Shown: positions 16,502 to 51,294 of the stretch, piece by piece
How the letters are laid out: each line of letters opens with the position of its first letter
Numbering within the stretch: the first letter of the stretch is position 1
Virus record (IMG/VR): IMGVR_UViG_3300037245_001762
Coordinates: 1 to 52,067 of that record
Length of the DNA stretch: 52,067 bases
From: a virus
Taxonomy: Duplodnaviria; Caudoviricetes
Strand: one strand, 5' to 3'
Program-made: the position numbers and the translations under genes
The notes under the pieces: model-generated
Database searches by the model: none
Told to the model about the DNA's origin: nothing
What the model saw: only the letters and a program-made list of their open reading frames with translations

Positions 16502-17434
16502 TTAAATATCTGTAAAATAGTCTATTTCACTATCTTTGTTCATTTTTATCTCACCCTCATGGAATTCTTGGTTGCCGGAGGTTGAGAAACTGCAGCAAAA
16601 TTCTTGCTCAAATAGATAACCATACTCTTTTTTTAGACTCTCAATGTCTTCCTTAAATAGCATTTTTCCCAAAGAGACTTGGTATGGTTGAAGTAATGGG
16701 TAAAAGTCTATTGTTGGTGGTTCTTCATTAGCCTTATCAAATATCTCAAAGAAAAAGTTACTCCTACCGTTAGGGGTAGATTCTAATATGAAATCCGCGT
16801 CTATAATATTAGCAAGATTTGGTCTTACAGCCTTATAAACCACACTATCATCATGCCTGTTCACAAAAGCAGCCTCAGACATAAACACACAAATTACATT
16901 TTCCTCACCTCTAACAGATTCATTTGCTGGGTAGGCTGTAATTGTTATACCGTTGAATAAATCAACTACATTTTTAGCGTCATTTAATACTATATCACCC
17001 TCTTCCCAGAAATTTCCGTTAATGTCTGTAAAACCATTCATAAAAAGTGCCTTAAATCGTTTTATAAATTCGTTGGCTATACTCTGTGTGTTTCCAGCTA
17101 CGATCATAACCTTATGTTCTACGTATCTACCCTTAACAACCCTCCCTTTTATAATGTGATCAAAGCAGTTATACGCTATTGTTCTTAAAGCTGTCTCTGT
17201 TGCACCTATCTTTCTAGACTTGTTTAATATGACCTTGTGTTTTTTTTGTACGGCGTTAAAATACTCTAACTGATAATCAAATATATCAGTTCGCACACCG
17301 TTGTTTGGGTGTTTTGGGTTTCCAATCATTCTGTTAAATTCTATAAAATCATACGGCATAACTATAGAGTGGTTTTTTTTAGATATGTTTTTTGTCCAGA
17401 TCTCCAGTTGTTTGGAACTATTCTTTACACCCAT
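16502..17434 (-). CDS. terL: Terminase large subunit, ATPase domain only
   Basis: DYQ adenine-binding motif, Walker A KSRKIGAT, Walker B VFMSEAAF, coupling motif STPNG; ends just after FEQEFCCSF with no nuclease domain. Confidence 0.85.
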   Translation of the reverse strand: MGVKNSSKQLEIWTKNISKKNHSIVMPYDFIEFNRMIGNPKHPNNGVRTDIFDYQLEYFNAVQKKHKVILNKSRKIGATETALRTIAYNCFDHIIKGRVVKGRYVEHKVMIVAGNTQSIANEFIKRFKALFMNGFTDINGNFWEEGDIVLNDAKNVVDLFNGITITAYPANESVRGEENVICVFMSEAAFVNRHDDSVVYKAVRPNLANIIDADFILESTPNGRSNFFFEIFDKANEEPPTIDFYPLLQPYQVSLGKMLFKEDIESLKKEYGYLFEQEFCCSFSTSGNQEFHEGEIKMNKDSEIDYFTDI

Positions 17435-17472
17435 ATATAAGTGTTATTGCTGTAATATTATTTAAGTATTTA
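17432..17472 (-). promoter_or_regulatory. Shared packaging-gene promoter, copy 1
   Basis: + strand CATATATAAGTGTTATTGCTGTAATA identical at 17432, 49736 and 51253, including the start codon; TTAAATA TATA box adjacent. Confidence 0.85.
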
Positions 17473-17736
17473 TTAATCCTCCTCCTCTTCATCATAAGAT
17501 AATTCTAATAGTAACTGTGTTTTCCACTTTAGCCTCTCATCCTCTGTCTCATTCTTTATCATTAATTCATCATTAGGTATTTCAGGTATTGGTATACCTA
17601 TCTTGGAAAAGTCCTCTATTAATCGTTCATATTTTATCTGGTACATTGAATCACTCATTGTTTTTTGACTGTTCTCTATATGCCACATAATTCTTGACAG
17701 ATCTTTAGAGTCAAATTCCAGCCTAGCCATTAACAT
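17473..17736 (-). CDS. Hypothetical protein (positional candidate for small terminase)
   Basis: Immediately upstream of the TerL ATPase gene; no diagnostic motif. Confidence 0.35.
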   Translation of the reverse strand: MLMARLEFDSKDLSRIMWHIENSQKTMSDSMYQIKYERLIEDFSKIGIPIPEIPNDELMIKNETEDERLKWKTQLLLELSYDEEEED

Positions 17737-17769
17737 TACATTTATATATAACCTAATATAAATGTGTAA

Positions 17770-18045
17770 TTAAACTGTTCTTGTAGTTAATTTAGTGTGG
17801 TTATGTTTTTTATTGTTTTCATACCGTTCTTTAGCATAGGCTAACTTATACTCCCTGTTATTTTCATACCATTCTTTATGTCTGGCTAAGTCATACTCCT
17901 TATTATTTTCACGCCATTCTTTATTTTTGGCTAACCTATATTCCCTGTTATTTTCATGCCATTCCTTTTTATAAGATGCATGATATTCACTGTTATTTTC
18001 ACGCCATTCTTTATTTTTGGCTTTTTTATGTTCGTCACTTACCAT
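17770..18045 (-). CDS. Charged helical repeat protein (15-aa KEWxENNxEY repeats)
   Basis: ~45-nt tandem repeats; resembles HNH N-terminal repeats but has no nuclease domain. Confidence 0.55.
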   Translation of the reverse strand: MVSDEHKKAKNKEWRENNSEYHASYKKEWHENNREYRLAKNKEWRENNKEYDLARHKEWYENNREYKLAYAKERYENNKKHNHTKLTTRTV

Positions 18046-18218
18046 ATTTTTTTAACAACCTCTTATATTTTTTAGATGTTTTATCAATTCTGTAATTTCT
18101 TGGTTTATATTTTTTTAACCATTCATTATATACATTAATACCTTCATTGAATGTTTTGTTAATTTCCTTATCTGATAAGGTGAGTGTTCTAGTTTTAATA
18201 ATGTTTCACCATATAACC

Positions 18219-18344
18219 TTACTTTTTCTTATCCTTTTTTCGTTGTGGTATTACAACATCATTTATACATGATGTACAAAATGTCTGTATAAAATATACA
18301 GACTCACCACAATAAGCACATTTCCGAACAGTTGTGTTACTCAA
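18219..18344 (-). CDS. Small Zn-finger peptide
   Basis: Manual: MSNTTVRKCAYCGESVYFIQTFCTSCINDVVIPQRKKDKKK; start overlaps the upstream stop. Confidence 0.45.
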   Translation of the reverse strand: MSNTTVRKCAYCGESVYFIQTFCTSCINDVVIPQRKKDKKK

Positions 18345-19156
18345 TAGTGCCTCACTAGTGGCTTTATATCCATCTCTGCTATATGTTTTTTTACTAGTAT
18401 TTCACCATTAGATTCTACAATAACTTCTACCATTCCTATATCTGGTGTTGTTCCTGCAACACCACCTCTAAATAAATGTCCATCAGGGTACTTCCAAGCA
18501 GGAGTAATTATCCCGTGTGTATGTACAAATTCTACGTGGACAAAATAATGAACGTGTGATCTTGCTAGAACATCAAAACGACCCATCTTACCCTTTTCAA
18601 ACACCATACCTGCCATTTCTCTGGATAGAGCCGTCGTCCTATATGATGCCCATTTATTAAATCCCACGTGGTGAGAACAATTAAATATCTTTCCGTTTAA
18701 ATCAAATATTGCATAATAATCAGTAAACCCACTACCTCCAAATGCCTTATATCTACCTGCATCCATCTGTCGTGCAAATATTTCCTCAAAGTTTGTACCT
18801 TGCAAGTCTACGTGATAACCTGAACCTCTGGTAATTAAAAGATTTTTGTAGGGTATTTTTTTAACTAACTTACCTGCATCAATTAATTGATCTTGGATGT
18901 TTGTTGACCATGATTGTTTTCCTAATCCTTTAGGATTTCCACCATCACAGGGCTCACCGTTAATTACCAATACATCTGGTTTTTGGTGTAACTCGTCTAT
19001 ACACTCATTCCAAACACTGTATAATTCTTTTTGTAATTTGGTCGGATTATGTACAGTTCCTAAATCTGCAATTTCTGGTTCCTGTGTACATATAGACGTG
19101 GAACTTCCCACGTGCATGTCTGAAACAAGTAATACAGATTTAGAACTCTTTGCCAT
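18341..19156 (-). CDS. Calcineurin-like metallophosphoesterase
   Basis: SDMHVG, VINGE..DG, GSGYH, SHH, RSHVH motifs. Confidence 0.8.
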   Translation of the reverse strand: MAKSSKSVLLVSDMHVGSSTSICTQEPEIADLGTVHNPTKLQKELYSVWNECIDELHQKPDVLVINGEPCDGGNPKGLGKQSWSTNIQDQLIDAGKLVKKIPYKNLLITRGSGYHVDLQGTNFEEIFARQMDAGRYKAFGGSGFTDYYAIFDLNGKIFNCSHHVGFNKWASYRTTALSREMAGMVFEKGKMGRFDVLARSHVHYFVHVEFVHTHGIITPAWKYPDGHLFRGGVAGTTPDIGMVEVIVESNGEILVKKHIAEMDIKPLVRHY

Positions 19157-19193
19157 TAAAACTTATTTCTCATATAACACTATATTAACCTTA

Positions 19194-19385
19194 CTATACA
19201 GTACGATGTATAGGTTCACGACCTAATCTAACATAAATTCTATGTAGTTCATCCTCCAACTCTCTAATACCATAATCAAACACAGCACTACATTTTTTTA
19301 TTTTACATTCTAATAATATATAATTTAGACGTGACAGTAATTCACGTACATTCCCACCACACATAGTGCATACTATCTCATCCAT
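19194..19385 (-). CDS. Small Zn-binding protein
   Basis: CTMC...CKIKKC. Confidence 0.4.
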   Translation of the reverse strand: MDEIVCTMCGGNVRELLSRLNYILLECKIKKCSAVFDYGIRELEDELHRIYVRLGREPIHRTV

Positions 19386-19515
19386 TTATCTAAAACCTCT
19401 CCAACATATCTACACTCTCCACATAGACACCACCCACCAAAATTGGTTAATATGTTCCCTTCCGAATTACCACATTTCTTACAAATCATAAACATATATT
19501 ATGTTGTGGTACTAT

Positions 19516-19734
19516 TTATCTATTTCTGCCACCAACAGGTTTAAGAAAATATGTCACCTTTTGATCTCCTGGGTTGTTTGGTGGGCTTATAAGCACAACT
19601 TGCCATAGTTTTTTGGATTTTTCTAATCTCATCTGTGTACCCAATGAAGGTCTTAACCCTTCGTCAAGTTTGCTAGTCTGAATAAATCTGTTTGGTTTAC
19701 CATATAAACCTAACTCAAAAAAGTCATAATTCAT
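19516..19734 (-). CDS. Possible head-closure/adaptor protein
   Basis: Coupled to 19731..20072; WQVV...TYFLK beta pattern. Confidence 0.3.
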   Translation of the reverse strand: MNYDFFELGLYGKPNRFIQTSKLDEGLRPSLGTQMRLEKSKKLWQVVLISPPNNPGDQKVTYFLKPVGGRNR

Positions 19735-20072
19735 AGTGGATTGCTAGCCTTAAACTTTGGACGTCCAAACCTACCTCGTATATACCTCTGTAATTTATCC
19801 TCATAGTCCTTATTCATTTCTTCTGTACCATTTTCTAAATAGTAGAAATATGCAACTGCTCCAAAATTAACCAGTTCAAACTCTATTTCAGTAGGGTTTA
19901 TTATTGGATTTGTAGCATCATCTTGTGTGCCTATGTTAAACATTGCTTGTGTGAACAACCCCTGGGAATATTCACCGGCCTCCCTTAATCTACGATTTGT
20001 GGTCTCATCATTTGCATCAACCTCACCTATGGTACTTCGTAACTTGTCCAAATTGTAAAGTCTTGTACCCAT
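19731..20072 (-). CDS. Possible head-tail connector protein
   Basis: Size and helical pattern (Y..LDKLRS..G, AVAYFY) resemble gp15-like connectors. Confidence 0.4.
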   Translation of the reverse strand: MGTRLYNLDKLRSTIGEVDANDETTNRRLREAGEYSQGLFTQAMFNIGTQDDATNPIINPTEIEFELVNFGAVAYFYYLENGTEEMNKDYEDKLQRYIRGRFGRPKFKASNPL

Positions 20073-20109
20073 AACATTTATATATAACCACTGTTATTTA
20101 AGTTATTAG

Positions 20110-20193
20110 ATGAGTCCACAAGATGAGCAAATCACTGATGAACTTATTGAGAAATACTCTAAACTTTTAGATGATCTCGCTACTGACGATTAA
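20110..20193 (+). CDS. 27-aa acidic peptide
   Basis: Manual: MSPQDEQITDELIEKYSKLLDDLATDD, with TTTATATA box upstream. Confidence 0.3.
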   Translation: MSPQDEQITDELIEKYSKLLDDLATDD

Positions 20194-20501
20194 TTTAAAT
20201 GCCATACCATTATAGATTTCCTAGATTGTTTTGACACTAGTGATACTTTTATCTTGCCTTCCATGTCTAAAGCATATTGAATTAATTTAGTGAACTCATC
20301 TGTTGATATTACTGGACACTTGATTCTACTATACTTTAATTGTTCTTCATGTACAATACCTTTCTGGTCTACATACCATAAATCGCATATACCTCTAGAG
20401 GCATAATTACGATCACCACGTATGGCTATTTTCTTGTCTAAAAGATCTCTAATTCTTCTTCTCTCAAAGCCTGCACCTGCCAAATAATTTTTATTTGCCA
20501 T
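20190..20501 (-). CDS. hjc: Archaeal-type Holliday junction resolvase
   Basis: Y..GAGFER, R..ASRG..DL, EQLK PD-(D/E)xK motifs. Confidence 0.7.
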   Translation of the reverse strand: MANKNYLAGAGFERRRIRDLLDKKIAIRGDRNYASRGICDLWYVDQKGIVHEEQLKYSRIKCPVISTDEFTKLIQYALDMEGKIKVSLVSKQSRKSIMVWHLN

Positions 20502-20964
20502 TACATTCTTTACATTTGTTTGTTTCGGTCACCACCTCATCACATATAGAACATGGCTTATATCCAATATAGTTTAGTTGGTTGGTGACCTCTAGGAGTC
20601 TTATTTCCTGTGATCGTGGTTCTTGTTTTTTCCGTTGTAACTTGTTAATACTAATTTTTAGTTCCACGTATTCTTGTTCAAGTGTCAACATGGATTCTAT
20701 CACCTTATTACAACCCACACACATACTCTCCTCAAACTTATATTCAGTCTTACACCTGTTACATACACGTACTGGAATACTATAGTGGTTTTTATTACAT
20801 TTCTTATGTATTATGTCGTTCCATGTGATCTGATGTTTTCCGTGTGATTTTTCACCTTTAAGTGCTATACCATATATTTCTGTTTTATCTCCACATGTGT
20901 CACACGACCAATCAACCTTTAGATGGTAGTTTTGCCTTGCAACAATTTCCTCTAATTGAATCAT
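20491..20964 (-). CDS. Cys-rich multi Zn-finger protein
   Basis: Five CxxC motifs plus a coiled coil. Confidence 0.55.
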   Translation of the reverse strand: MIQLEEIVARQNYHLKVDWSCDTCGDKTEIYGIALKGEKSHGKHQITWNDIIHKKCNKNHYSIPVRVCNRCKTEYKFEESMCVGCNKVIESMLTLEQEYVELKISINKLQRKKQEPRSQEIRLLEVTNQLNYIGYKPCSICDEVVTETNKCKECNGK

Positions 20965-21041
20965 ATATAAATCTTACTAATAGGTGGTTTATAAATGTTA
21001 CTATTATATAAGATTTTATAAAAAAGGATTAAATATAGAAA

Positions 21042-21422
21042 TTATCTATTATCTCTACATTTTAAACATTTTTCTTGATCTGTGTTGAGTAAACACTCTA
21101 CATCACACTGTTCACAGTTCTTTGTGCACATATACAAGTCCTCACCACCCACACGATATTCCTTAAAGTGGATAAATTGCCCATCTCTTTGGAACTCACA
21201 AAATCCTAACTCTGTAAGATATTCCGTAATGTATGATATATCATATTTTGTGGATCTTTCTAGCATGGATTGTGGATATTCGGGTGATTGTGATGCACGT
21301 TCTATCTGTTGTGCTGTTTTTGTCACTGTACTCACTCTCCATAAATCTAGTTTTTTGTCATCGTTTATGTAACTAACATATATTACATCATCATGTATCT
21401 TAGCCATTAATTTCACCACCAC
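21042..21422 (-). CDS. Hypothetical protein with Cys-rich C-terminus
   Basis: ORF track. Confidence 0.45.
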   Translation of the reverse strand: MVVKLMAKIHDDVIYVSYINDDKKLDLWRVSTVTKTAQQIERASQSPEYPQSMLERSTKYDISYITEYLTELGFCEFQRDGQFIHFKEYRVGGEDLYMCTKNCEQCDVECLLNTDQEKCLKCRDNR

Positions 21423-21539
21423 TTATAGTAATCCCGGAAAGCATATTGGCTTCTTCTACCTCTAGATCCATTCTGTTTTCACAGTCACTATGTGCTTTGT
21501 TTATGTTACCCAAGTGACACCATGGACATATTTTCCTAT

Positions 21540-21710
21540 TCATAAATTATACACCTCAGATAAAAAATCTCTGGTTTCTTGTATAACTGTTCTCATACGT
21601 TGAGTCTGTTGTGGTGGTATCACCATACATGCTCTGGTAATGTCTGTTAACCGGAGTTGTATTTTTTTCAACTCTAAATCGGCTTCTTTTGTACTGATTT
21701 CTTTATTCAT
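21540..21710 (-). CDS. Hypothetical protein
   Basis: Likely start MNKEIST with a TATA-like box upstream. Confidence 0.4.
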   Translation of the reverse strand: MNKEISTKEADLELKKIQLRLTDITRACMVIPPQQTQRMRTVIQETRDFLSEVYNL

Positions 21711-21794
21711 GATATAGTGTAAAACGAAAGAGTATATATTCAATACGTAATGTTTATATATACAAATCCAAAGACTTTATATAACTACAATAAT

Positions 21795-21850
21795 TGTCCC
21801 TTGAGTCATTTTTACAGAGGGGACTCAATATCAGGAAACCTGACGGGATA
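21795..21850. ncRNA. Structured intergenic element (RNA or cruciform) downstream of MCM
   Basis: TGTCCC/GGGATA closing stem with TTGAGTC/GACTCAA and TCAGG-AAA-CCTGA hairpins. Confidence 0.35.
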
Positions 21851-21929
21851 TATAAGGTATAACACACTCCTTAATAAAGATTAATCCAGTGTTGACACAT
21901 ATCCTAAATAATACACCTCACATGTTTTG

Positions 21930-24350
21930 TTATAGTCGATAGGTGTCATCTGAATTCTTGGAAATTCTTCCACTATTGACACATTTTTGAAATACCATTT
22001 TGGCTTGATCTCTGTTAAAGTATAACCCATTTGCTATCTCAACCATAAAGTCTTCTTCTGTAAATGTCTCTTCATCTATACCTAATCTCTGTAAACAATC
22101 AGAGATAAAGTCCTCCTTGTTCATTTGCTTTTGTGTCTTAAATGTCTCCATCACATTTCCATCACTTGGGTCAATTCCAAAACTTTTTAATGACTCCTCA
22201 AATATATCACAAATGGCTTTTGCATCATTCTTGTCTGCTTTATCTCTCATGTGTATTCTTGCATGTGCCATTGTTAGTTTGGCTAAATCTTCTATCTTTC
22301 TAGGGTCTATAGGTATCTTATTTTGTTTTTTTGAAAAGCCTCTTATTCTCACATAGTATTCTGCTATGTGTTTTTTAGCCTCATCTGTAAGTTCTGGGAC
22401 ATATGTCATCTTTACATAATTTATAAATTTCTTAATCTTCTCAGCATCAACAGTTATCTCCGTGTTTACACTCATTTCTTTTAATATGTGTTTGGCAATG
22501 TCTGCATCTCTATACTCATCTACCTCATCACGTATAAGCCATATTATTGCAAACCTTGACAGTAACGGTTCAGTTAAATTAATTTGATCAAGTATTGGGA
22601 GATCTTTCCATCTACCTGACTTTGGGTTAGCCGCTGCTAGTATTGTCGTGTTTGTAGGTAATGTGCCATGCATGCCTACTTTATTAATAGGCACGAACCC
22701 CTCGGCCATTGCTGTCAATAATGCTTCTCTATCATGTGGATTCATCTTATCGATTTCATCTATTATAGCAGTTCCCTCATTCGCTATTGTTAGAGCACCT
22801 GGTAGGAAAACAAGTGGTGAGTTTGATGTGACTCTGTCCATACCTCCTGTAAGACCAGCTGCTGTATTACCTTTACCTGTTGTGAATATACATTTTTGTG
22901 TTATGTTCATTGTTTCTTTCATGATTGTGGATTTAGAAGTTCCTGGATCACCTAACAGAAACACTGCTATGTTGTTAATCTTTTTACTTGTTTCTGGTGC
23001 ACTCACTGATGATAGTAACACGGTTTTTTTAGCTTCGGTGTTCCCTAGTGTGGTATATGCCGACTTTGTTAGTTCTGTAAGAAAATCTTTCTCTTTGACA
23101 AGTTCTTTCCATTTCTCTATCTCGTCCTCTGTAGGTAAAAGTGTTTCCTCTTCATCTAAAGATATAATGCAAACTATATCTATAAACGGCTCGTTGTATT
23201 TTGTCTTTGCTTTTTTCTCCTGTCTGAACTGTCCCACTATAATCTTTTTTTGTCCTACAAATGCCTCACCTACAAAATCACCATATAATTTGGCTTTGAA
23301 AACATTGGGTTTACCGTGTCTTGATTCTGTTATGAACTCTGACAACCATAATATTTGTACATATTCAGATTCTAGAATTCTATACTCTCGCATTTTAGTG
23401 TCACACGTGTTACATAATACACTATCTAGTCTTCTATGTTCGTCACATGTTACTGTTTTTGAAGCTTGGCATTTGTCACACATAAAATCTGCCTTGGTTG
23501 TCACTGTCATTCTATCCTCCACAGCTATAACGTCACAATGAAAACTTATTATTTTGTCATAAAGGTTAGGCTCTATATCCTTGATATTGATGTTTGTGTC
23601 AGATATAAATTCTAACTTAGGTTCCAAGCCATATAATTTTAGAATGTCCATAATATATTTGGTAAAACTTCTTGTGTATGCCTGTATCATTACATGTATA
23701 TATTCATCATTCAGATCAAAGTAGAACGTGTTACTTAGTTGGTTATAGTTGTAATTGCACCTTACATATATAATCAGATAGTCATGCCATTCTTGAAATG
23801 ATCTAGGTAGTTTTTTTGGTTTTTCTGATTTCACAACACCACTCTCTTTTAATGCTAATTCAAACATCTTACTAAGTAATGGTATATCCATCGGGTGTTC
23901 ATATACTTTCTCACGTCTAAACAAATCTACCCATACCTGGTTTGTGTTTTTTCCTTCCTTTAGTAGTTTAACAGCATATATAAATGCGGAATCCTTTCTA
24001 ACTGAATCGTTACCATATTCAAAATCATCCACATTAAATCCTTGTGTCTTTAAATGATTTAATATACCTGACAATCTCACCTCTGTTATATTTTCATTAT
24101 TAGATACGTTAGACCATTCATGATCGTCCAGTGTCTCACCATCACCATGTATTATGATTTTTGTGCCGTCCTTTTTCTCCAACGTTCTGGATCTTGTCTC
24201 ATCAAACTCATATGGTTTTAGACACACATAAAACACACCGACCGAGTCTGTTAAGATTTTAGTTTTTGCTTTGACAGCCTCAACATCATCAAATATCACA
24301 CTAAGTTTTTCAACTTCAAAAACAACCACATCCTTACCACACTGTATCAT
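21930..24350 (-). CDS. mcm: MCM replicative helicase with N-terminal extension
   Basis: Zn finger CDKC..CNTC, Walker A GDPGTSKS, TAAGLTG, IDEIDKM, AAANP, LLSRF, PR..E sensor. Confidence 0.95.
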   Translation of the reverse strand: MIQCGKDVVVFEVEKLSVIFDDVEAVKAKTKILTDSVGVFYVCLKPYEFDETRSRTLEKKDGTKIIIHGDGETLDDHEWSNVSNNENITEVRLSGILNHLKTQGFNVDDFEYGNDSVRKDSAFIYAVKLLKEGKNTNQVWVDLFRREKVYEHPMDIPLLSKMFELALKESGVVKSEKPKKLPRSFQEWHDYLIIYVRCNYNYNQLSNTFYFDLNDEYIHVMIQAYTRSFTKYIMDILKLYGLEPKLEFISDTNINIKDIEPNLYDKIISFHCDVIAVEDRMTVTTKADFMCDKCQASKTVTCDEHRRLDSVLCNTCDTKMREYRILESEYVQILWLSEFITESRHGKPNVFKAKLYGDFVGEAFVGQKKIIVGQFRQEKKAKTKYNEPFIDIVCIISLDEEETLLPTEDEIEKWKELVKEKDFLTELTKSAYTTLGNTEAKKTVLLSSVSAPETSKKINNIAVFLLGDPGTSKSTIMKETMNITQKCIFTTGKGNTAAGLTGGMDRVTSNSPLVFLPGALTIANEGTAIIDEIDKMNPHDREALLTAMAEGFVPINKVGMHGTLPTNTTILAAANPKSGRWKDLPILDQINLTEPLLSRFAIIWLIRDEVDEYRDADIAKHILKEMSVNTEITVDAEKIKKFINYVKMTYVPELTDEAKKHIAEYYVRIRGFSKKQNKIPIDPRKIEDLAKLTMAHARIHMRDKADKNDAKAICDIFEESLKSFGIDPSDGNVMETFKTQKQMNKEDFISDCLQRLGIDEETFTEEDFMVEIANGLYFNRDQAKMVFQKCVNSGRISKNSDDTYRL

Positions 24351-24661: not shown

Positions 24662-24782
24662 CTATTATTACTAGTTATAATATATACCTTACTAGATATC
24701 TAATTTACTTACGTATGTACTTACTTAGGGTTTACTCCCTTACTTGGCTTTCTACGTTGCCATTCTGTTGATTTTGACATTT

Positions 24783-25175: not shown

Positions 25176-25180
25176 GGCAC

Positions 25181-26660: not shown

Positions 26661-26716
26661 AATATATTTAATTCAAAAAAACACTATATAAATCTATACA
26701 TAAAGTCATCATTATT

Positions 26717-40452: not shown

Positions 40453-40455
40453 TTC

Positions 40456-41142
40456 CTATGTCCTCCAAGCCGGAACAATTACTTGTTTGGCTTTTCTTGT
40501 AAGGTATCCACCTTGACTTTCTGTAACTTTACGGTATGCGGTTTTCTGAACGTTTTGTTTTTCGACTACATCTTTAGCAAATTTAATTTTTGCTTCTAAT
40601 GCTCTATTAGAACCTTTAGAATTTGTTAGCTTTTCAACTTCTGCATTTCTTATACTTTCTGGGTATAATTCTGCGGCTGATTCTGCAATAGCAATTCTCT
40701 TTCTTGATTCTAATTCCTGTTCTAGGAATGCTAGTCTTGTTCTGTCTTTTCTTGCTTCTTTCTTAAAGTCTACTTCTTCATCATCATCATCTTGTTGGTC
40801 ACCTTGAGTTTCAGCTATTTTTGTTTTAGCATCTTTCTCTTTGTCATCATCATCGTCATCATCCTTTTTGTCATCGTCATCATCACCATCTATGGCTTGT
40901 TTGACTTTGGCAATTAAGGAGTCGACCTCTGGTATACGATCTCCCGCCATTTCGTGGGATTCCTCTGCCGGAGTGATTTCTTTAACCTCTTCAAGAAGTT
41001 CGACTGCTTCCTCTACTAATTCCATAACATCCTCTGGAGATCCATTGGATTCGTTATTGGGCATAATATCACCGGATTCTAGTCCTCTTGCGATTTTTTG
41101 AAGTTCTTCTATTTTTGCATTTAAAGTTTGCGTTTTTTTCAT
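40456..41142 (-). CDS. Scaffolding protein
   Basis: Acidic (poly-D), coiled coil, upstream of cement and MCP. Confidence 0.6.
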   Translation of the reverse strand: MKKTQTLNAKIEELQKIARGLESGDIMPNNESNGSPEDVMELVEEAVELLEEVKEITPAEESHEMAGDRIPEVDSLIAKVKQAIDGDDDDDKKDDDDDDDKEKDAKTKIAETQGDQQDDDDEEVDFKKEARKDRTRLAFLEQELESRKRIAIAESAAELYPESIRNAEVEKLTNSKGSNRALEAKIKFAKDVVEKQNVQKTAYRKVTESQGGYLTRKAKQVIVPAWRT

Positions 41143-41247
41143 GTTATTATATAAACGTTTCGATTAATAGTATTTAAAGTGTGAAGTGTGTAGTAATACT
41201 ATAATATTCAGTTATATCTAAGTAATTATTTTAACTGGTGTTTTTAA

Positions 41248-43825: not shown

Positions 43826-43827
43826 GT

Positions 43828-44163
43828 CTACTGTTGTGATCCCAAAACTTCAAAGGCGGCGTCGTTGGATGCAAAAACGTTTGCTCCATCTGTAACCTTT
43901 ACCCTATTAAACCAATAACTATCATCATTAAAAAATGTCGTATCTATATTAGTAAACGTTATAACCCCATTTACTGGATCACCAGAAACAGTTGCTGGGA
44001 ATGATGTTTCCACACCTGACGGATCGGTAAAAATCATCTCCACGGTTGTACCAGTCAAGTCTACCGGTTGTGTTACATTACCTGCCCCTGTCTCCAAAAC
44101 CTGTAACTGGAATTCTGTTCCAGCATCTCCAGTGTGTACTTTACCAAGTGTTACGATTGACAT
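43828..44163 (-). CDS. BppU N-terminal-like structural protein
   Basis: GDAG..FQ, PVDLTGTTV, D...G.I pattern. Confidence 0.55.
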   Translation of the reverse strand: MSIVTLGKVHTGDAGTEFQLQVLETGAGNVTQPVDLTGTTVEMIFTDPSGVETSFPATVSGDPVNGVITFTNIDTTFFNDDSYWFNRVKVTDGANVFASNDAAFEVLGSQQ

Positions 44164-44289
44164 TATATATATGTATATATCCTCAAAATATATAAAGATT
44201 TATATATTATATGTGTACACATGACATTCATCATATAACATAGTTACCCAAACATAAAATCTTTTTAGGTTGTATGTGAATTTAACACT

Positions 44290-44946
44290 TTATTGTATGA
44301 AAACAGTATTATCAAGATTTGTCCTTATAAGTACGGTGCTGAATATTATATTTGATGCTGTGATAAAAGCATCTGACTCTACGGTGGATGTGTTAATACC
44401 AAGAATTATAGCATCGGAACCCAATGTTGTGGTGTTCGTAACTACAATTACGGCATCAGAGTCAAGTGTGTTGGTTACACGTTCAACTATTAGAGCATCA
44501 GAGTCTAGTGATTCAACTACACGATCAATTATTAATGCATCACTCTCTAGAGAAGAGAACATAGTAGCTAAAATTAAAGTGTCACTATTTACAGATACTT
44601 GTTCATCTATCAATATGAAAGCATCCGTATCTAATGATATGGTAACAGTGGATGCTATTATAGCATCACTTAGTATGGTAGTGGTAATCATCTCTGATAT
44701 TAAAGCATCAGAGGGTATAGTGGATAATCCTGGCACTAATATTAAGGCGTCAGAATCCTCAGTAGATAGTACACTACCAGATATTACAGCATCAGAGAAG
44801 ATAACACTGAGACCTAGACCTAGTATTATAGCATCTGTAGTACAGGATGTGGTTACAACATCAAATATGAGTGCATCTGAGTCTAGGTCGGATGAATTAG
44901 ATACTGATAATTGTGTGATGTCGTGTATGTGTGCTAATGATGGCAT
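44290..44946 (-). CDS. Fibre-like protein with ~13-aa SDAxI repeats
   Basis: About 14 degenerate repeats with GCATC recurring at ~39-nt spacing. Confidence 0.55.
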   Translation of the reverse strand: MPSLAHIHDITQLSVSNSSDLDSDALIFDVVTTSCTTDAIILGLGLSVIFSDAVISGSVLSTEDSDALILVPGLSTIPSDALISEMITTTILSDAIIASTVTISLDTDAFILIDEQVSVNSDTLILATMFSSLESDALIIDRVVESLDSDALIVERVTNTLDSDAVIVVTNTTTLGSDAIILGINTSTVESDAFITASNIIFSTVLIRTNLDNTVFIQ

Positions 44947-45269
44947 TATGCACTATACAACGCCCATGATATAGTTTTAAAAGTGGTGTTTGTTTGTTGT
45001 ACGGTTACACGATATGACGTGGATGGGATCCAGTTTATTAAAAGTTCTGGGGTAACTTGTACTCCTACCACGGTAGTAATTCTGTATATTCGCTCAACCG
45101 AATTCTGTTCATCGAAATCATACACCCTTACTATAACCTCGTCATTTGCTGCCAATGCATTAAAGAATATTTTTGTAGAGTAATGTGCTAATGTGGTTTG
45201 TGATACAAATAGATCTTGTTCAGTACCATCTAATACTAGCTGAGCAAATGCCTCCACTGTTAATGCCAT
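44946..45269 (-). CDS. Putative structural protein
   Basis: Beta-rich, translationally coupled. Confidence 0.45.
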   Translation of the reverse strand: MALTVEAFAQLVLDGTEQDLFVSQTTLAHYSTKIFFNALAANDEVIVRVYDFDEQNSVERIYRITTVVGVQVTPELLINWIPSTSYRVTVQQTNTTFKTISWALYSA

Positions 45270-45622
45270 TATAATCTGATCTCCGTTCTACTATTGGTTC
45301 CTATAGTGGTTAATACGGCAGTTGTACTATTTAATGTCACTTTCATATCTTCACCTGCACCGTTCAAGATATACACTATACCAGTGACACCAGAATCATA
45401 ATCGGTAGGAAATATCTTTGTGGATAATATTAAATCTATAGTTCCATTTATAGTTCCTTTTACCTTAATTGTGGTGGGATCTGCCATGTTGGTGGTGTCA
45501 ATGTGTAAGATCACTTTGTCTTGTAGATTTGTAAATGTTATAAAATTTACATCTGAACCTGTGGCAGTATAATCAACTGCCTCAGTTTTAAATGTTGTAG
45601 TTACCTCTCCAGCGTCTACCAT
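45269..45622 (-). CDS. Putative structural protein
   Basis: Beta-rich, translationally coupled. Confidence 0.45.
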   Translation of the reverse strand: MVDAGEVTTTFKTEAVDYTATGSDVNFITFTNLQDKVILHIDTTNMADPTTIKVKGTINGTIDLILSTKIFPTDYDSGVTGIVYILNGAGEDMKVTLNSTTAVLTTIGTNSRTEIRL

Positions 45623-45628
45623 ATCACA

Positions 45629-45985
45629 TCACTCAAAATCATAATACTCCGGTTCCCCGCCTATATACTTGTCATATTGTTCAATAATTACACGTTCATA
45701 AATATGATTTACAACTTGTTTATTTACACCATTTACATTCTCCTGATATCCTACTAAATATACAACCTGTTTGTGTCCACTCGGCCCTCTCTGTGAGACT
45801 CGCCGTCTATATATCAGTCTTTTCTTACCACTTAGATCAACACGTAACACTGTTATACCATCATGTAAAATATCAAAAGCTTGTAACTTTGTTCTATCTA
45901 TATCACTATATTTATTCTCTATACCATTCTCTGCAAACTGGTTTAGATGTGTGTTATCTGAATAAACTGATCTCCACTCTATCAT
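45629..45985 (-). CDS. Hypothetical phage protein
   Basis: W...Y.D...L.QF, KRLIYRRRV, YLVGYQ. Confidence 0.55.
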   Translation of the reverse strand: MIEWRSVYSDNTHLNQFAENGIENKYSDIDRTKLQAFDILHDGITVLRVDLSGKKRLIYRRRVSQRGPSGHKQVVYLVGYQENVNGVNKQVVNHIYERVIIEQYDKYIGGEPEYYDFE

Positions 45986-46066
45986 TGTATTGTATCATCC
46001 ATAACATTGTATTGTCAAATATGATTAATAGAAACATATATATAAGTAATTTAGAGGTGTGTGTTA

Positions 46067-46269
46067 TGAGTGATTTAAATCTGAAAAACCAAAATTTGGT
46101 TTATTTTTATCTTTTAATTTCAGTGATGTTTACATTGACATGTATGGTTATGTTATTTATTGTGTTTGAAGGTTCGGTATTTTTTCCAATAACGGTACTT
46201 CTTTCTGTATTAGTATTACCTATCACTATGGTAATTTTGTTAGAATGTCATGTAAGAAAAATGGTGTAG
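46067..46269 (+). CDS. Small membrane protein
   Basis: Likely start MSDLNLK after GAGGTG; two hydrophobic segments. Confidence 0.35.
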
Positions 46270-46402
46270 AAATTAGACTTGTCACCGTTAAAATCATATA
46301 TTAATAAAAATTCCAAAGGGTATGAGATAACTTTAGAACAATTAGAAGATATGAAACTGTCTCAATTCACGGAAAATCTTTATTTGGTAGGACATCTAAA
46401 GA

Positions 46403-46666
46403 ATGGAGAAAAGCACTAAAGAGATGAAACTATCCACACTAATCAAACAGGGTTATTTAGAAGATACAAAAGAAGGATATATTGTCAGGAAAAACTTTTC
46501 ACTCAATGATTTAATGGTAGATGACATACTTGACAAATCATTAATAATTCCAGAGGGTGCAGTGGTGGATTTGACAGGTGGTTATTATGATATGTTAGAA
46601 GAATGGACTTACCACGGACAAGGTCCATTTATAAAATCTGGTAAGAAAGAGGCAACACAAAAATAG
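46403..46666 (+). CDS. Hypothetical protein
   Basis: ORF track. Confidence 0.45.
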   Translation: MEKSTKEMKLSTLIKQGYLEDTKEGYIVRKNFSLNDLMVDDILDKSLIIPEGAVVDLTGGYYDMLEEWTYHGQGPFIKSGKKEATQK

Positions 46667-46669
46667 TGG

Positions 46670-47500
46670 CTACAAAATACTTTCAAACTTTACCCTTTTT
46701 CTGTATATGATAGGATTCACTGTGTAATAGAATTTACGTATGTATTCTTTTTTGTAGAAATAAGCCTTGAAAATCTCATATGAATACATATTCTGTCTAA
46801 TCTTTGGTCTAAAACCACATAACTCATTGACCAGATCTGCATACACATCACATAATTCCTTTGTTTTGTGTGTGAAACTTACACCGTTCACACTACCAGA
46901 ACTGTAAACACTACCTTCAGAATCCCATAAACCACGAAGAAATAACACTTTTTGGTCACGGTTAAGCTTATCTATAAACTCGAAAGTTTGAATCTTTGTG
47001 AGAAAGTCACGTAAATTAACAGATAACATACGTACTACATATGTGTTATTTCGTTGATAGATCTTACCATTCCTCCAATCCTTTAATGGTTTTTTCTTAT
47101 TATAATACTTGTTAAGACTTAATCCAAATTGTACCTTAAGACACCTGCCAAACTCCTCTGCAAATTCCTCATCCACGGTTTCCAGTCCCACACCACCTGC
47201 CTTGATAATATATCCGTCACCGTACAACACCCCTACAATATAGGCTAATTCATTAGTTATTCTATCATGACCGTCATTTAATTGTCTTGTGTGCCATCCG
47301 GTATATTTTCCCTGTAAACCTTTCCTAATACTATCTTTATGCTCTTGTGATAAGACTCTTCCCTGTGCAGATTCTTTATTGGTTCTAGTAATATCCAACC
47401 CATGTAAGATTTTATAGAACTGTGTTTTATTAATACCACATTCCTTTAATATTTGTTTTATTGGTGTCCTATTAAGATATAGTTCTACAAGTTTTTCCAT
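46670..47500 (-). CDS. Free-standing LAGLIDADG homing endonuclease with HTH/NUMOD3-like N-terminus
   Basis: YIVGVLYGDG and FLRGLWDSEG motifs; LSQEHKDSIRKG. Confidence 0.85.
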   Translation of the reverse strand: MEKLVELYLNRTPIKQILKECGINKTQFYKILHGLDITRTNKESAQGRVLSQEHKDSIRKGLQGKYTGWHTRQLNDGHDRITNELAYIVGVLYGDGYIIKAGGVGLETVDEEFAEEFGRCLKVQFGLSLNKYYNKKKPLKDWRNGKIYQRNNTYVVRMLSVNLRDFLTKIQTFEFIDKLNRDQKVLFLRGLWDSEGSVYSSGSVNGVSFTHKTKELCDVYADLVNELCGFRPKIRQNMYSYEIFKAYFYKKEYIRKFYYTVNPIIYRKRVKFESIL

Positions 47501-47553
47501 ATATTATAGTGTTGACACTATAATATAAATGTTTATAACGTTCTATTGTATAG

Positions 47554-48138
47554 TCAGGATTCATCATACTGAAATGTAAGTGTCTCTACACCTGTTGCAC
47601 CCGGAACTGCATTCTCCGTAACATCCATCTGTAAAACTATATAATCTGTAGTTTCACCTACTGAGGTGATTGTTCCACTCCCATCTGTTATGGTTACAGT
47701 TTTTGGTACACCAGATGTAAATGTGAATGCGTTTACTTTACCGGTTATCTGTGCATTGTTTGTTACGAGTTCGTTACCACTTAGACCTGGGGTCCCTGTG
47801 GCTGCCACATATCCAGCACTACTACCACTTGATTTTTCAGGTGTTTCATCTCCAATACTCAAATTAACATCAGTGCCATAATTATTTACACCATCAGTGA
47901 ACCACTGTACGTTGTTGAGACTTGTGGTAGGTGCTATAATACATTCTAAATATACGTTTCTCCAAAATGAGTGATTTGTAGCTGCTGCTCCAGGTCTTGG
48001 TATGGGGTTGGCTGAATCTAATGCGAATCCATCCTCGGTTTTAAATCTTAATTTTGTCAAGATTGTTAGGTTTGTACTAGTGCCAGGTGACGTGTCAGAT
48101 CCACCGGTATCTAAAAACCAATCCATTTGAGCTGGCAT
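47554..48138 (-). CDS. Virion structural protein
   Basis: ANPIP, SFW, TDYIVLQM, ETLTFQYDE; directly after portal. Confidence 0.55.
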   Translation of the reverse strand: MPAQMDWFLDTGGSDTSPGTSTNLTILTKLRFKTEDGFALDSANPIPRPGAAATNHSFWRNVYLECIIAPTTSLNNVQWFTDGVNNYGTDVNLSIGDETPEKSSGSSAGYVAATGTPGLSGNELVTNNAQITGKVNAFTFTSGVPKTVTITDGSGTITSVGETTDYIVLQMDVTENAVPGATGVETLTFQYDES

Positions 48139-48169
48139 ATATATATGTTACTATGTCTACTATATAAAG

Positions 48170-49738
48170 TTAAACTGTTGCTGGTTCACCACCGACTGGC
48201 CATTTAGATTTCTGTACTCGTACAGGACTGGTTGTGGAATTCCAATTATTTGGATTCCATGATACTGTTAGTGATTGATCAAGTGGCCCTTTATCTACCC
48301 ATGTGTTTTTTTGTGGACTAGCATCTCCACCTAGTGTTGTCGTGTCCTTTGTTGTAAACTCTTCAAATCCTACAAATTCTGGCAGTCTTGACTTCTCCAT
48401 TAATCCGTTTTCAACCATATCCTTACCTATTTCATAAAGATCAGGTCTAAACATTGATGTTATCTTTGGTTTGTTATAGGTGTGTATAATTTTTATTGGT
48501 AAATCATCAGCATCATCCAATCTAAACAATACACGAAGTATTTTATCATAATATTGTGATTGTAACATTTTCTCTAATTTTAGTTTTTCTGGTAAAATCT
48601 CACTGTTAATAAACATGTCAATCTCTTCGGAGTTTGAATTTCCACCAAGTGCACCTTTATCACCTTCTGACAACATGAATGCTGGTATGTTATAGTATGC
48701 TAGTATGGCCTTTATACATCGTATTACTATTCTTTCTAGGCCTGCAATGTCACCAGAGTTTGTACTTGAACTTAATAGTTCTACACCACCTTCACCATCT
48801 GGGTCTTGAACTACTGCGATATCTTGTCCTTTTGATTGTGAGTTAGCAGTTAGAAAGGTGTCTAATACATTTTGTTCATTTCCAAAATCCTGTGGTTGTA
48901 TAGGTACACCAAACACCTTTGGTTGGTGCCATGTGGATTCTGCGGCATGTAAAAAGTCATCAGTAAATATAAGGTTAAGTACATTAGCAACGTTTGTCAC
49001 TCTGTCAACCTGGGAGTCACCATAGTGGTCTGCAAATAACTCCTGATTGAAGCCATTCTCTATATATATCATTCTTTCTGTAGGTAATATAAATTGTTGT
49101 GCACTAGTAAGTCCAACTATTTGTACACCGACCAGTTCTGACGTATTCTGATCAAGATAAGGTCTGAGTGTAAATTCTGGTCTTATTAGTCGTATGGATG
49201 TAGGCATATCAAACACACCATCATCATTTTCGTCTATAGGTGTCATGGCTAGTACACATCTGCCCTGTTCTCTCGCTGTTATGTATCCGTTAAATATATT
49301 TTCAGATAAATCCATATCGTTACTAATTTTGTCAATGTAATTCTTAATCTGTAATGGTGACATTTCCTTGTTAAAATATGGTACAAATAATGGTTGTTCA
49401 GATTTCCATATTTTTATACGCTCGTCATCTATGTCCTCATCAGATCTTGGCACAACATCTGTAATATAACCTTGACCACACACTAATTTTGTGATTATCC
49501 AATTTGCCTTATAGACATATGAATTTTGCATGGCAGCTCTGAATTCATCACGTTGTCCTTGTATGTAGGGATCAACTGGAGCCCATACCTGTAAACCATT
49601 AAAACTTAGCTCAGTTAGGCCCTTCTTTCTCCATAAGCTACTTTTCGATATTGTACGCTTAGATGTGGCACTTCTAAGTCTAGATGTAGGTTTTTCTGAT
49701 TTTGCCTTTCTAACTCTAGATTTCTTTTTAGAGACCAT
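48170..49738 (-). CDS. Portal protein
   Basis: 522 aa; G...L, HYGDS, ILAYYNIPAFML, F....ILP pattern. Confidence 0.8.
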   Translation of the reverse strand: MVSKKKSRVRKAKSEKPTSRLRSATSKRTISKSSLWRKKGLTELSFNGLQVWAPVDPYIQGQRDEFRAAMQNSYVYKANWIITKLVCGQGYITDVVPRSDEDIDDERIKIWKSEQPLFVPYFNKEMSPLQIKNYIDKISNDMDLSENIFNGYITAREQGRCVLAMTPIDENDDGVFDMPTSIRLIRPEFTLRPYLDQNTSELVGVQIVGLTSAQQFILPTERMIYIENGFNQELFADHYGDSQVDRVTNVANVLNLIFTDDFLHAAESTWHQPKVFGVPIQPQDFGNEQNVLDTFLTANSQSKGQDIAVVQDPDGEGGVELLSSSTNSGDIAGLERIVIRCIKAILAYYNIPAFMLSEGDKGALGGNSNSEEIDMFINSEILPEKLKLEKMLQSQYYDKILRVLFRLDDADDLPIKIIHTYNKPKITSMFRPDLYEIGKDMVENGLMEKSRLPEFVGFEEFTTKDTTTLGGDASPQKNTWVDKGPLDQSLTVSWNPNNWNSTTSPVRVQKSKWPVGGEPATV

Positions 49739-49777
49739 ATATAAGTGTTATTGCTGTAATACTATTTAAAGTATTTA
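49736..49777 (-). promoter_or_regulatory. Shared packaging-gene promoter, copy 2 (portal)
   Basis: CATATATAAGTGTTATTGCTGTAATACTATTTAAAGTATTTA. Confidence 0.85.
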
Positions 49778-49862
49778 TTATGCGGAGATCTAATATGTTA
49801 TTTAAACTAAAGTAACTTACTTTAAAGTAACAAATATATACTACGTTAACGTAAGATATGAT

Positions 49863-50048
49863 ATGAAACAACTAACACAAACAGATAGAAAAACAGTTGA
49901 TATGATTCAATTTTTAGAAAAAAAATATCAAATACAACTACTAGAGGGATATGGTATTCATACACAAGACATGAAAGAATATCAAAAAGTCAGACTTGAA
50001 TACCTACAAGTGATAGCACAAATACAAGATGAAGGTGTAAAAATATGA
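49863..50048 (+). CDS. Hypothetical protein
   Basis: ORF track; ends with a GGTG Shine-Dalgarno for the next small ORF. Confidence 0.45.
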   Translation: MKQLTQTDRKTVDMIQFLEKKYQIQLLEGYGIHTQDMKEYQKVRLEYLQVIAQIQDEGVKI

Positions 50049-50197
50049 TTAGACCCACTGACGAATGTTTTGTGTTATGTTCTGATAGTAATTGCTTTGC
50101 AGAACACCAGATTGTATTAAGAGCAGAAAAAGTCAATGTTTGTGTATTTGTAAGAAATTTGGGGTTAGTGAATTGGGATTAAAGGAGTTGAAATCTA

Positions 50198-50377
50198 ATG
50201 ATACCTAACTGGATAAAATTTGTGCCTGCTATTAATTTGTACGTAACAAAACTACAACCTTGTAAATGTGAGAGATGTGATTATATATGGTTTCCAAGAA
50301 TAAATTCTATTGGTGATATGAACATAAACACCTGTCCAAAATGCAAATCAAAGTTATGGAATATTCCAAAGTGTTAA
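50198..50377 (+). CDS. Archaeal-type Zn-ribbon protein
   Basis: Manual: CERCDYIWFPR...TCPKCKSKLWN. Confidence 0.65.
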   Translation: MIPNWIKFVPAINLYVTKLQPCKCERCDYIWFPRINSIGDMNINTCPKCKSKLWNIPKC

Positions 50378-50407
50378 TAAGTGTTGTGTGATGAATCTAT
50401 CTAACTT

Positions 50408-51007
50408 TTAAAAACCCTCAAATACGTTCCATGAATCATCAAAGTCAGGGTCTAAACCTTTTCTCATTCTGGTGTCTCTTGCAATACGTGACATTTTATA
50501 GGTGGGTACTCCATGGAAATGGTTTCTGGCAGCATAGCAAGCATATCCTAGAGCCCAAAATATATCATCATGACTTCTTGCTGGATGTCTATATAGGAGA
50601 TTTCCAGCATCCGATTTATAGGATTCCTGTTCTAGAATCTGTTTGAATAGATCTTTGTCACCTATCTCTAATTTGTCATTATGTGCTAGTGTGTGGATGA
50701 GGTTTATAATTTCCTGCTTTTTAGACATTGTTGAGACAACCTCCTCCATTGGAACTTCTTTTGGTAGAAATTCTGCTGCGGCGTCACCTACACCACTCCT
50801 GTCATAACATAGTTTGGTCATTCTGTATTTTTTATTTATTTTGTAAATACCCATCGCTTGTTCTTTATAATCTATATGATCCCATACCTTTTGTCCACAT
50901 TGTCGAAGAGTTCCGTCAAGATATTCCAATAAAACGAAAGCAGCTTGGTCAATTCATTACCGTTTGGCGGGATCGTAACCACCAAAGAAAACTGGAATCC
51001 CTACCAA
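50408..51007 (-). pseudogene. terL: Terminase large subunit nuclease domain interrupted by in-frame TAA TGA (pseudogene or recoded)
   Basis: TTG at 51007 after AGGTGGT: MVGIPVFFGGYDPAKR**IDQAAFVLLEY..., then YDRSGVG and HDDIFWAL. Confidence 0.75.
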
Positions 51008-51255
51008 AAAATACCACCTTTCCTACCATAATGTAATTCCTTATGACATGGTATACATAAAGAGACACCGTTATTCAGATTTAAAGATAATTTAGGATTA
51101 TTTTTTGTTATTTGCCATTCATGTTTACTATTACACCCACAACATATCCACCCATCTTTTATTTTTCTCCAGAGTGCTCTACCATTAGGTCTAATGTATG
51201 TGATATTAGAACCACAATCAACACAAATTCTATCCTTAGGAATTAAAACATTCAT
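51001..51255 (-). CDS. Zn-finger/HNH hybrid protein
   Basis: CVDCGS..TY...W...CCGC joined to the HNH C-terminal half NNGVSLCIPCHKELH. Confidence 0.65.
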   Translation of the reverse strand: MNVLIPKDRICVDCGSNITYIRPNGRALWRKIKDGWICCGCNSKHEWQITKNNPKLSLNLNNGVSLCIPCHKELHYGRKGGIFW

Positions 51256-51294
51256 ATATAAGTGTTATTGCTGTAATACTATTTAAGGTATTTA
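51253..51294 (-). promoter_or_regulatory. Shared packaging-gene promoter, copy 3 (HNH plus TerL nuclease)
   Basis: CATATATAAGTGTTATTGCTGTAATACTATTTAAGGTATTTA. Confidence 0.85.

Follow-up and report, generated by a model that had tools for sequence, protein, structure and literature searches.

The large terminase subunit (TerL) of a tailed virus, represented by a 52,067-bp IMG/VR record (IMGVR_UViG_3300037245_001762; here the window, that is, the whole record, classed as linear and given a CheckV completeness of 100), is probably produced as separately translated pieces. Its ATPase and its nuclease are carried by two genes, the nuclease gene appears to have been cut a second time next to a small HNH-like gene, and one promoter-like sequence would have been copied recently to the front of the ATPase, portal, and HNH-like genes.

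RESULTS

Two genes for the two domains of TerL

Both domains of a TerL of the T4 gp17 type were found in the window, the N-terminal packaging ATPase on one gene and the C-terminal RNase H-like nuclease on another, and not on the single polypeptide of that type. The ATPase product matched PHROG_2 (TerL) with an E value of 1.5e-17, and its family profile matched the ATPase of T4 gp17 (residues 114 to 356; E value, 2.2e-13). The blocks KSRKIGATE and ESTPNG, which we interpret as the Walker A and coupling motifs, were conserved in the alignment of the ATPase family. For its part, the nuclease half matched Terminase_6C with 40.6 bits (positions 50537 to 50983; model positions 1 to 152) and the nuclease domains of the P74-26/G20c TerL (E value, 5.5e-10). 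The blocks GGYD, DRSGVGD, and HDD were conserved in it, and they contain the residues that we take to be catalytic from the solved TerL nucleases.

A preliminary description of this DNA had proposed that TerL is divided into these two genes and would have been refuted by a full-length TerL elsewhere. The two genes are indeed delimited by separate start and stop codons, and the terminase family profiles gave no other match in the record (one match each for PF03237 and PF17289; none for PF03354, PF04466, or PF20441). No close relative of the ATPase was found among GenBank phages, the best being the TerL of jumbo myoviruses with ∼25% identity.

The portal gene had been named in the same description, and its sequence alone gave a weak match (Pfam E value, 0.099). 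The fold search bore this identity out: although the AlphaFold2 (AF2) model was of moderate confidence (mean predicted local distance difference test [pLDDT] score of 60), Foldseek returned 115 matches at an E value of ≤0.001, with the HFTV1 portal at the top (E value, 3.9e-9; TM score by target, 0.52), and the matches listed were all portal, neck, or connector structures. Judged by its predicted fold, the product of 48170 to 49738 is clearly a portal.

Extent of the ATPase-nuclease split among relatives

Relatives were retrieved mainly with alignment queries (single-sequence locus searches gave few), and the 56 distinct related loci considered below were deduplicated by an exact 200-nt key only. 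The homologue search for the ATPase admitted proteins of up to 543 aa. The best 120 homologues listed, excluding the protein of the window itself (P0001), were all 259 to 329 aa long, with 46 to 67% identity, and no fused TerL was found among them. A search of 1.84 billion cluster representatives rendered 51 at an E value of ≤1e-30, only 3 of which exceeded 400 aa: one was an ATPase with a LAGLIDADG insertion, and the other two (P0216 and P0218) were true fused TerLs, the nearest relatives of the fused type, containing Terminase_6N plus Terminase_6C. The presence of the latter among the matches indicates that the ATPase-only group sits beside ordinary fused enzymes. P0183, of 637 aa, is an ATPase-only TerL homologue with a LAGLIDADG-type insertion, probably an intein, and without a nuclease domain. 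Similarly, all of the nuclease homologues (43 of 43) were short, ranging from 156 to 237 aa.

Gene order pointed in the same direction. The ATPase gene lay upstream of the nuclease gene on the same strand in 16 of the 56 loci, with gaps of 86 to 6035 nt, and the nuclease gene was followed by the portal gene within 29 to 866 nt in 37 of them. At two loci (L073, positions 1250 to 1560, and L072, positions 420 to 720), the stop codon of the ATPase and the ATG of the nuclease were a few nucleotides apart in different frames; this adjacent arrangement seems to represent the split at its simplest and may be the original one. No portal match was found after the nuclease in L073. Judged from homologue lengths and gene order, the separation of ATPase and nuclease is old and lineage-wide.

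An ATPase-only homogue of this kind was also found on a contig of a Marine Group I thaumarchaeote (L015, positions 9513 to 10864), where a protein of 303 aa with 52% identity is encoded beside a 150-aa open reading frame (ORF). The 20-kb locus contained no nuclease or portal match, and the whole genome gave no Terminase_6C match.

A second break within the nuclease gene

The nuclease half had been described as one open frame, 50408 to 51007, behind an HNH-like gene and a promoter-like repeat. Its identity and this order stood; its openness did not, as TAA TGA at positions 50959 to 50954 interrupts it, and both the break and its link to the HNH-like gene had been missed. Thus, the frame reads ...VFFGGYDPAKR, then the two stops, and then IDQAAFVLLEY.... 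The resulting mini-ORF corresponds to the first beta-strand of a TerL nuclease, with the first catalytic Asp. Nine IMG/VR relatives and the intact close homologues (e.g., P0140) showed an uninterrupted frame at this site, which the AF2 model of P0140 (pLDDT, 81) places in the loop between beta1 and beta2.

The locus L069, the closest relative available as DNA (71% identity in the portal and 66% in the nuclease), carries a 4-nt TTGA at the same codon boundary. Its mini-ORF also begins with TTG and comprises 28 codons, its remainder starts with GTG, and the broken nuclease gene is immediately preceded by a homologue of the HNH-like gene. In the comparison of the ten strand codons of the window with those of L069, 6 synonymous and 0 non-synonymous changes were counted (simulated chance, 2e-5). 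The proportions of non-synonymous (pN) and synonymous (pS) differences were 0.08 and 0.89 in the first 14 codons past the break, and 0.23 and 0.79 in the remainder, where no frameshift was observed. This strong purifying selection on both pieces indicates that both are translated and constrained, and the low pN relative to pS immediately past the break suggests that translation begins at or near the ATT with which the remainder opens. A recent pseudogene is therefore unlikely.

Two further candidates were discarded. The short N terminus of P0152 is probably a contig-end artifact rather than another break, since L089 starts inside the gene. A −1 frameshift or slippage at the T6 run (51011 to 51006), which would fuse the HNH-like protein to the mini-ORF, is disfavored by the conservation of the TTG start in L069 and by the intact relatives, which start at the same place. 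A degenerate DNA pattern for the strand motif retrieved from the viral collection only L032, which is intact, and Rfam gave no family at the gathering score anywhere in the window.

The HNH-like gene was found in the window and in 1 of the 56 loci (L069, positions 4783 to 5064; 43% identity by alignment, 37% by tblastn), a patchy presence among close relatives such as that of free-standing homing endonucleases. Its product matched PHROG_119 weakly (E value, 0.004) and scored 0.91 to HNH clusters with Atlas features, which we regard as a lead only. HNH endonucleases are characterized by a beta-beta-alpha-metal motif (His ... Asn ... His) and by Cys pairs that bind zinc. The C-terminal block LCIPCHKELHYGRK was invariant between the two genomes, and the CxxC pairs and NG..LCIPCHKELH were conserved by eye. 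In both genomes, the stop codon of the HNH-like gene either overlaps or directly adjoins the TTG at which the nuclease mini-ORF begins. A ribonucleotide reductase gene with a LAGLIDADG intein (L069, positions 1783 to 4572) lies directly upstream of the HNH-like gene in that locus.

A promoter-like repeat in front of three genes

A 25-mer ending in ATG matched the minus strand three times when ≤3 mismatches were allowed (positions 17432, 49736, and 51253) and had no match on the other strand. The whole-record search found the same three and no others, and 100 shuffles of the sequence gave 0 matches. By eye, 26 nt including the ATG were identical in the three copies; similarity within the repeat family extends over ∼42 nt and reaches a TTAAATA box. 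The copies at the portal and HNH-like genes were 98% alike, while the ATPase copy was only 83% alike in an ungapped comparison because of a 1-nt insertion or deletion; no similarity was found among the copies beyond the ∼42 nt on either side. With a 34-mer and ≤8 substitutions, no fourth copy was detected in the window, nor any in 62 related loci (L006 to L067). The repeat is thus as it had been described, exact over 26 nt and nearly so over some 40, and heads the ORFs for the ATPase (310 aa), the portal (522 aa), and the HNH-like protein plus nuclease (84 aa for the former), and no unrelated genes.

The TTAAATA box lies ∼25 to 32 nt before the ATG in each of the three copies. Many other genes likewise show a TATA-like box at about this spacing together with the context ATATAT-ATG (60 nt upstream of 65 minus-strand ORFs), and for this reason the repeat would represent an unusually well-conserved subset of the ordinary promoter type of the virus. 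In archaeal leaderless promoters, the TATA box is located ∼26 to 27 nt before a transcription start that lies at or next to the start codon, and the TATA-to-ATG spacing of the repeat fits what such transcripts would require. A second and looser promoter-like family (78 to 94% alike) occurs at 5094 to 5120, 7838 to 7864, 41142 to 41168, and 47519 to 47536, just upstream of four unrelated minus-strand ORFs, including a LAGLIDADG gene.

In L069, the regions upstream of the HNH-like and portal genes were unlike each other and unlike the repeat, which suggests that the three copies are recent. By eye, the region upstream of the L069 portal gene matched the repeat at ∼22 of 32 positions with the same spacing, and the nuclease promoter likewise differed from the portal promoter in L030 and L031. 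The simplest reading would be that the portal promoter was copied to the HNH-like and ATPase genes in this lineage. The suggestion that the repeats are the recombination scars of the split was not sustained: relatives down to ∼30% ATPase identity share the split without having the repeat, so the repeats are not its cause.

Directly upstream of the HNH copy is a gene for a pentapeptide-repeat protein (51316 to 51678, minus strand; 120 aa; Pfam E value, 1.1e-26), whose own upstream region has the TATA part of the repeat and not the rest.

Genome context and host

The ORFs of the window are almost all on the minus strand, and they include MCM, RadA/Rad51, Cas4-like nuclease, and PCNA-like genes. 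Homologues of the ATPase were found in genomes of a Marine Group I thaumarchaeote (L015, 52% identity) and of Nitrosopumilaceae (L016, a metagenome-assembled genome, 38%), which makes a thaumarchaeal host likely, in line with the setting assumed beforehand. The features discussed are collected in Table 1.

Table 1. Features of the window and their coordinates
Feature	Positions	Strand	Remarks
Genes between the ATPase gene and the left end of the record	336..16439	-	Part of the ATPase-nuclease gap after rotation
TerL ATPase-only gene, 310 aa	16502..17434	-	Own start and stop codons; PHROG_2 and family profile
Promoter-like repeat, ATPase copy	17432..17473	-	TTAAATA ∼25 to 32 nt before ATG; ends in ATG
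Portal gene, 522 aa	48170..49738	-	Fold search on AF2 model
Promoter-like repeat, portal copy	49736..49777	-	Ends in ATG
Three small ORFs (61, 45, and 59 aa)	49863..50377	+	In the 670-nt spacer between nuclease and portal genes
Nuclease remainder, 181 codons from ATT	50408..50953	-	Terminase_6C; first listed start is TTG at 50929
TAATGA, 6-nt in-frame insertion with two stops	50954..50959	-	Relative to all intact relatives
Nuclease mini-ORF, 16 codons, TTG start, ...VFFGGYDPAKR	50960..51007	-	Aligns with N termini of intact relatives
HNH-like gene, 84 aa	51001..51255	-	Stop TAG overlaps TTG start of the mini-ORF
Promoter-like repeat, HNH-like gene copy	51253..51294	-	Ends in ATG
PCNA-like gene, C-terminal piece	51876..52067	-	ORF open at the end; PCNA_C E value, 4.2e-7

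The PCNA-like gene is cut by the right end, and hence the record is not closed and some sequence is missing, including ∼0.5 kb or more of this gene. After one rotation, 16 of 17 coding-strand ORF pairs of a 41.7-kb relative (G001) were colinear with the window, the shared order being Cas4-like, MCM, ATPase, nuclease, portal, and structural genes down to an 895-aa protein. This colinearity implies that the window was opened inside the gap between ATPase and nuclease. The distance of 33 kb given in the preliminary description therefore depends on the point at which the linear record begins. Followed in the conserved direction, the gap comprises 16.5 kb as far as the left end, another 1.06 kb at the right end, and the missing part, so that the ATPase lies 17.6 kb or more upstream of the nuclease.

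The left part of this gap contains genes for a lectin-like Laminin_G_3/pentaxin protein of 736 aa, fn3, YadA-head repeat, DUF6745, and a Mom-like protein, and the ATPase-nuclease gap looks like a hot spot for the uptake of accessory genes. The Mom-family protein, a DNA-modification gene product (3801 to 4445, minus strand; E value, 1.9e-39), is encoded among fiber-like genes, and ∼17 tandem copies of a 12-nt unit (10496 to 10783) lie inside the 366-aa ORF with DUF6745. Just upstream of the ATPase region, a 91-aa ORF (17770 to 18045, minus strand) contains four 45-nt repeats, each encoding 15 residues among which K, E, W, N, and Y are abundant, with no family match.

On the other side of the portal gene, a free-standing LAGLIDADG gene with an N-terminal helix-turn-helix (46670 to 47500, minus strand) sits in a ∼4-kb block between the portal gene and a pair of genes for proteins of 111 and 320 aa; in L069, the homologues of this pair come directly after the portal gene. 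L069 also has no spacer comparable to the 670 nt that separate nuclease and portal in the window, its gap being 40 nt. Two of the three spacer ORFs were tested, and no family match was found.

DISCUSSION

A terminase in separately translated pieces

The results are best accounted for, and in our opinion probably explained, by a two-gene TerL whose nuclease was cut again and whose genes recently received three copies of one promoter. The record would represent nearly the whole genome of a tailed virus that infects ammonia-oxidizing archaea, the marine Nitrosopumilaceae, and belongs to a lineage in which the large terminase appears to have long been encoded by two genes, with the ATPase upstream and the nuclease directly before the portal. 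Other genes would have accumulated between the halves, which are separated by 0.09 to 6 kb in relatives and by no less than 17.6 kb in the window. Their products are presumed to form a non-covalent assembly at the portal. The nuclease gene of the window, like that of L069, seems to have been re-cut in the loop after the first strand by a short insertion, leaving a mini-ORF of 16 to 28 codons with the catalytic Asp and a remainder of ∼180 aa. Both pieces are most likely read as coupled cistrons behind the HNH-like gene, and the three leaderless-type archaeal promoter copies most likely synchronize the expression of the scattered packaging genes. We infer both the assembly of the pieces and the role of the HNH-like protein.

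Several observations weigh against this explanation. The ATPase scored 20.6 bits against Pfam Terminase_6N, below the cutoff of 22. A 10-sequence profile of the small-terminase candidate, which is a conserved ORF upstream of the ATPase in relatives chosen by position only and without PHROGs support, found nothing among the ORFs of the window at an E value of ≤10. The HNH assignment is weak, with no match to Pfam HNH even at an E value of 10. The remainder of the window has no canonical start after the stops (ATT, where L069 has GTG), and at the DNA level the second break was seen in two genomes only, the short call of P0138 being just a hint. Finally, promoter function, leaderless start, and co-regulation of the three genes are predictions from sequence.

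A bolder version, which we put forward tentatively and consider possible rather than probable, is a three-piece enzyme in one sub-lineage. A 16-residue micro-peptide would provide the central strand and catalytic Asp in trans, an arrangement evolved together with the minimal HNH protein, and ATPase and nuclease would be long-independent subunits in a large clade of marine thaumarchaeal tailed viruses. RNase S offers a comparison for a strand supplied in trans; to our knowledge, there is no TerL precedent for a 16-residue peptide supplying a core strand in this way, which counts against the main explanation too. If the bolder version were true, the covalent ATPase-nuclease link, a hallmark of Duplodnaviria, would be dispensable.

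Alternative explanations

A somewhat unlikely alternative is that the HNH-like gene acts selfishly as a free-standing homing endonuclease, the insertion conferring immunity at a conserved target in the nuclease gene and the split being collateral; it concerns the origin of the break and is compatible with working pieces. The gene is missing from 55 of the 56 related loci, and the insertion of 4 to 6 nt, ∼50 nt downstream of it, occupies the same codon boundary with a different length and sequence in the two carriers. Other homing-type genes are also present, namely, the LAGLIDADG gene of the window and the ribonucleotide reductase intein of L069. Moreover, PMC2988022 provides precedents in T4-type phages, in nrdA, gene 39/60, and gene 43, whose pieces reassemble. 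On the other hand, a length of 84 to 93 aa leaves, in our judgment, no space for a separate DNA-recognition domain. The gene is diverged (37 to 43% identity) yet kept in two distant genomes, where it overlaps or abuts the nuclease start, and it looks like a settled member of the operon; its cutting activity, besides, is predicted only.

A weakened form of the scar suggestion is in our view unlikely: the repeats would be mobile cassettes carrying a promoter, or sites of recombination by which genes were moved around in this genome, and would not primarily serve co-regulation. T4-type phages carry promoter-stem-loop cassettes, and the positions of the copies, each at a place where the window departs from its relatives, are suggestive: the ATPase copy sits where relatives have an overlapping upstream gene, the portal copy borders the 670-nt insertion in front of that gene, and the third precedes the HNH-like gene. 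The second promoter-like family (5094, 7838, 41142, and 47519) could be seen in the same light. However, the gene order is unchanged with respect to G001, so there is no relocation of the ATPase to explain; the split is older than the repeats; and the copies are unlike beyond the shared stretch.

It is quite unlikely that the nuclease gene is dead and that the HNH-like protein took over the cutting, the downstream frame being a decaying remnant or retaining a purely structural role in docking to the portal. The in-frame stops come right after the strand with the catalytic Asp, no canonical start follows them, and the HNH-like gene occurs only in the two genomes with the break; HNH proteins of the HK97 gp74 type reportedly work with terminases (Kala et al., in 2014). 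Both pieces are nevertheless conserved with respect to L069 while synonymous sites are saturated, and the DRSGVGD and HDD motifs have been kept.

Recoding over the insertion (read-through, shift, or hop), yielding one full-length nuclease, is very improbable. T4 gene 60 uses a translational hop. The insertion is tiny, conservation on both sides of it follows the frame that a joined product would require, and gene 60 is named in PMC2988022 as split near a homing endonuclease. Nevertheless, two in-frame stops in the window versus a +1 shift in L069 would need different events, there is no matching pair of take-off and landing codons, and no known Rfam element was found.

Scarcely credible, finally, is an assembly artifact with segments swapped between the three direct repeats, which permit an alternative path: contigs of the likely source run do break at the 34-nt repeat, with about double depth at the 34-nt node, but the swap would destroy the orders that the assembly keeps, nuclease directly before portal as in 37 related loci and replication genes before ATPase as in G001, the 42-nt repeat is shorter than ordinary reads, and depth is even at ∼8 to 10 (re-assembly of that run agrees with the window over 50300 to 51282, which is not independent evidence).

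Significance and comparison with known systems

According to PMC12451611, the TerL in which ATPase and nuclease are fused is among the hallmark genes of tailed viruses and herpesviruses. It is also the marker by which these viruses are usually detected and classified. Pipelines built around a TerL of ∼500 aa will call the viruses of this lineage incomplete or overlook the nuclease half. A widespread lineage with separate proteins would, in turn, be a natural system in which to study the role of the covalent link in coupling translocation to cutting.

We found no earlier report of a TerL split into separately translated ATPase and nuclease subunits, in archaeal viruses or otherwise, in the literature searched; the primary papers on these viruses (Lopez-Perez 2019 and Ahlgren 2019) lie outside it and may note the split. 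In a bioRxiv survey (10.1101/2025.08.23.671958), the word "terminase" is absent from the main text.

Both domains are recognizably of the type of T4 gp17 (Terminase_6N plus Terminase_6C). Unlike in that type, they are encoded by separate genes 0.09 to at least 17.6 kb apart, and here the nuclease is divided further. In the Jug jumbo phages, for their part, terL is fragmented by group I introns, co-transcribed, and rejoined by splicing (PMC12880540). The coding sequence is in fragments in both cases, but a group I intron can be discarded here: no Rfam intron was found in the window, each piece is bounded by conserved start and stop codons of its own, and the DNA that separates the pieces consists of kilobases of ordinary genes.

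In "Ca. Nitrosopumilus koreensis," the element NitKor-E1 is a lone TerS-TerL pair in a cellular genome that has been called enigmatic (PMC6563490). The 150-aa ORF and ATPase-only TerL of L015 resemble this pair, as compared by description only; that paper does not state that its TerL lacks the nuclease domain.

The very small HNH-like protein encoded beside terminase and portal genes recalls the HNH packaging proteins of the HK97 gp74 type. It differs from them in being found together with a broken nuclease gene and in its rarity (the window and 1 of 56 loci), and its predicted HNH identity is weak.

The organization also resembles that of phage genes in pieces. In PMC2988022, ribonucleotide reductase, topoisomerase, and DNA polymerase genes in pieces are found beside homing endonucleases, the pieces made by these enzymes including Aeh1 nrdA with mobE, T4 genes 39/60 with mobA, and gene 43A/43B of phage 25; T4 nrdA and mobE are joined by a UAAUGA overlap. 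The window shares with them a divided gene for an essential enzyme, a small HNH-type gene by the break, and a tight stop-start junction. It differs in that TerL is the enzyme affected, in that the first split has no endonuclease gene at the break in the relatives examined, and in that the HNH-like gene lies upstream of both nuclease pieces, not between them, one piece having only 16 codons. The second break beside the HNH-like gene would thus be a compact case of an essential gene surviving its division.

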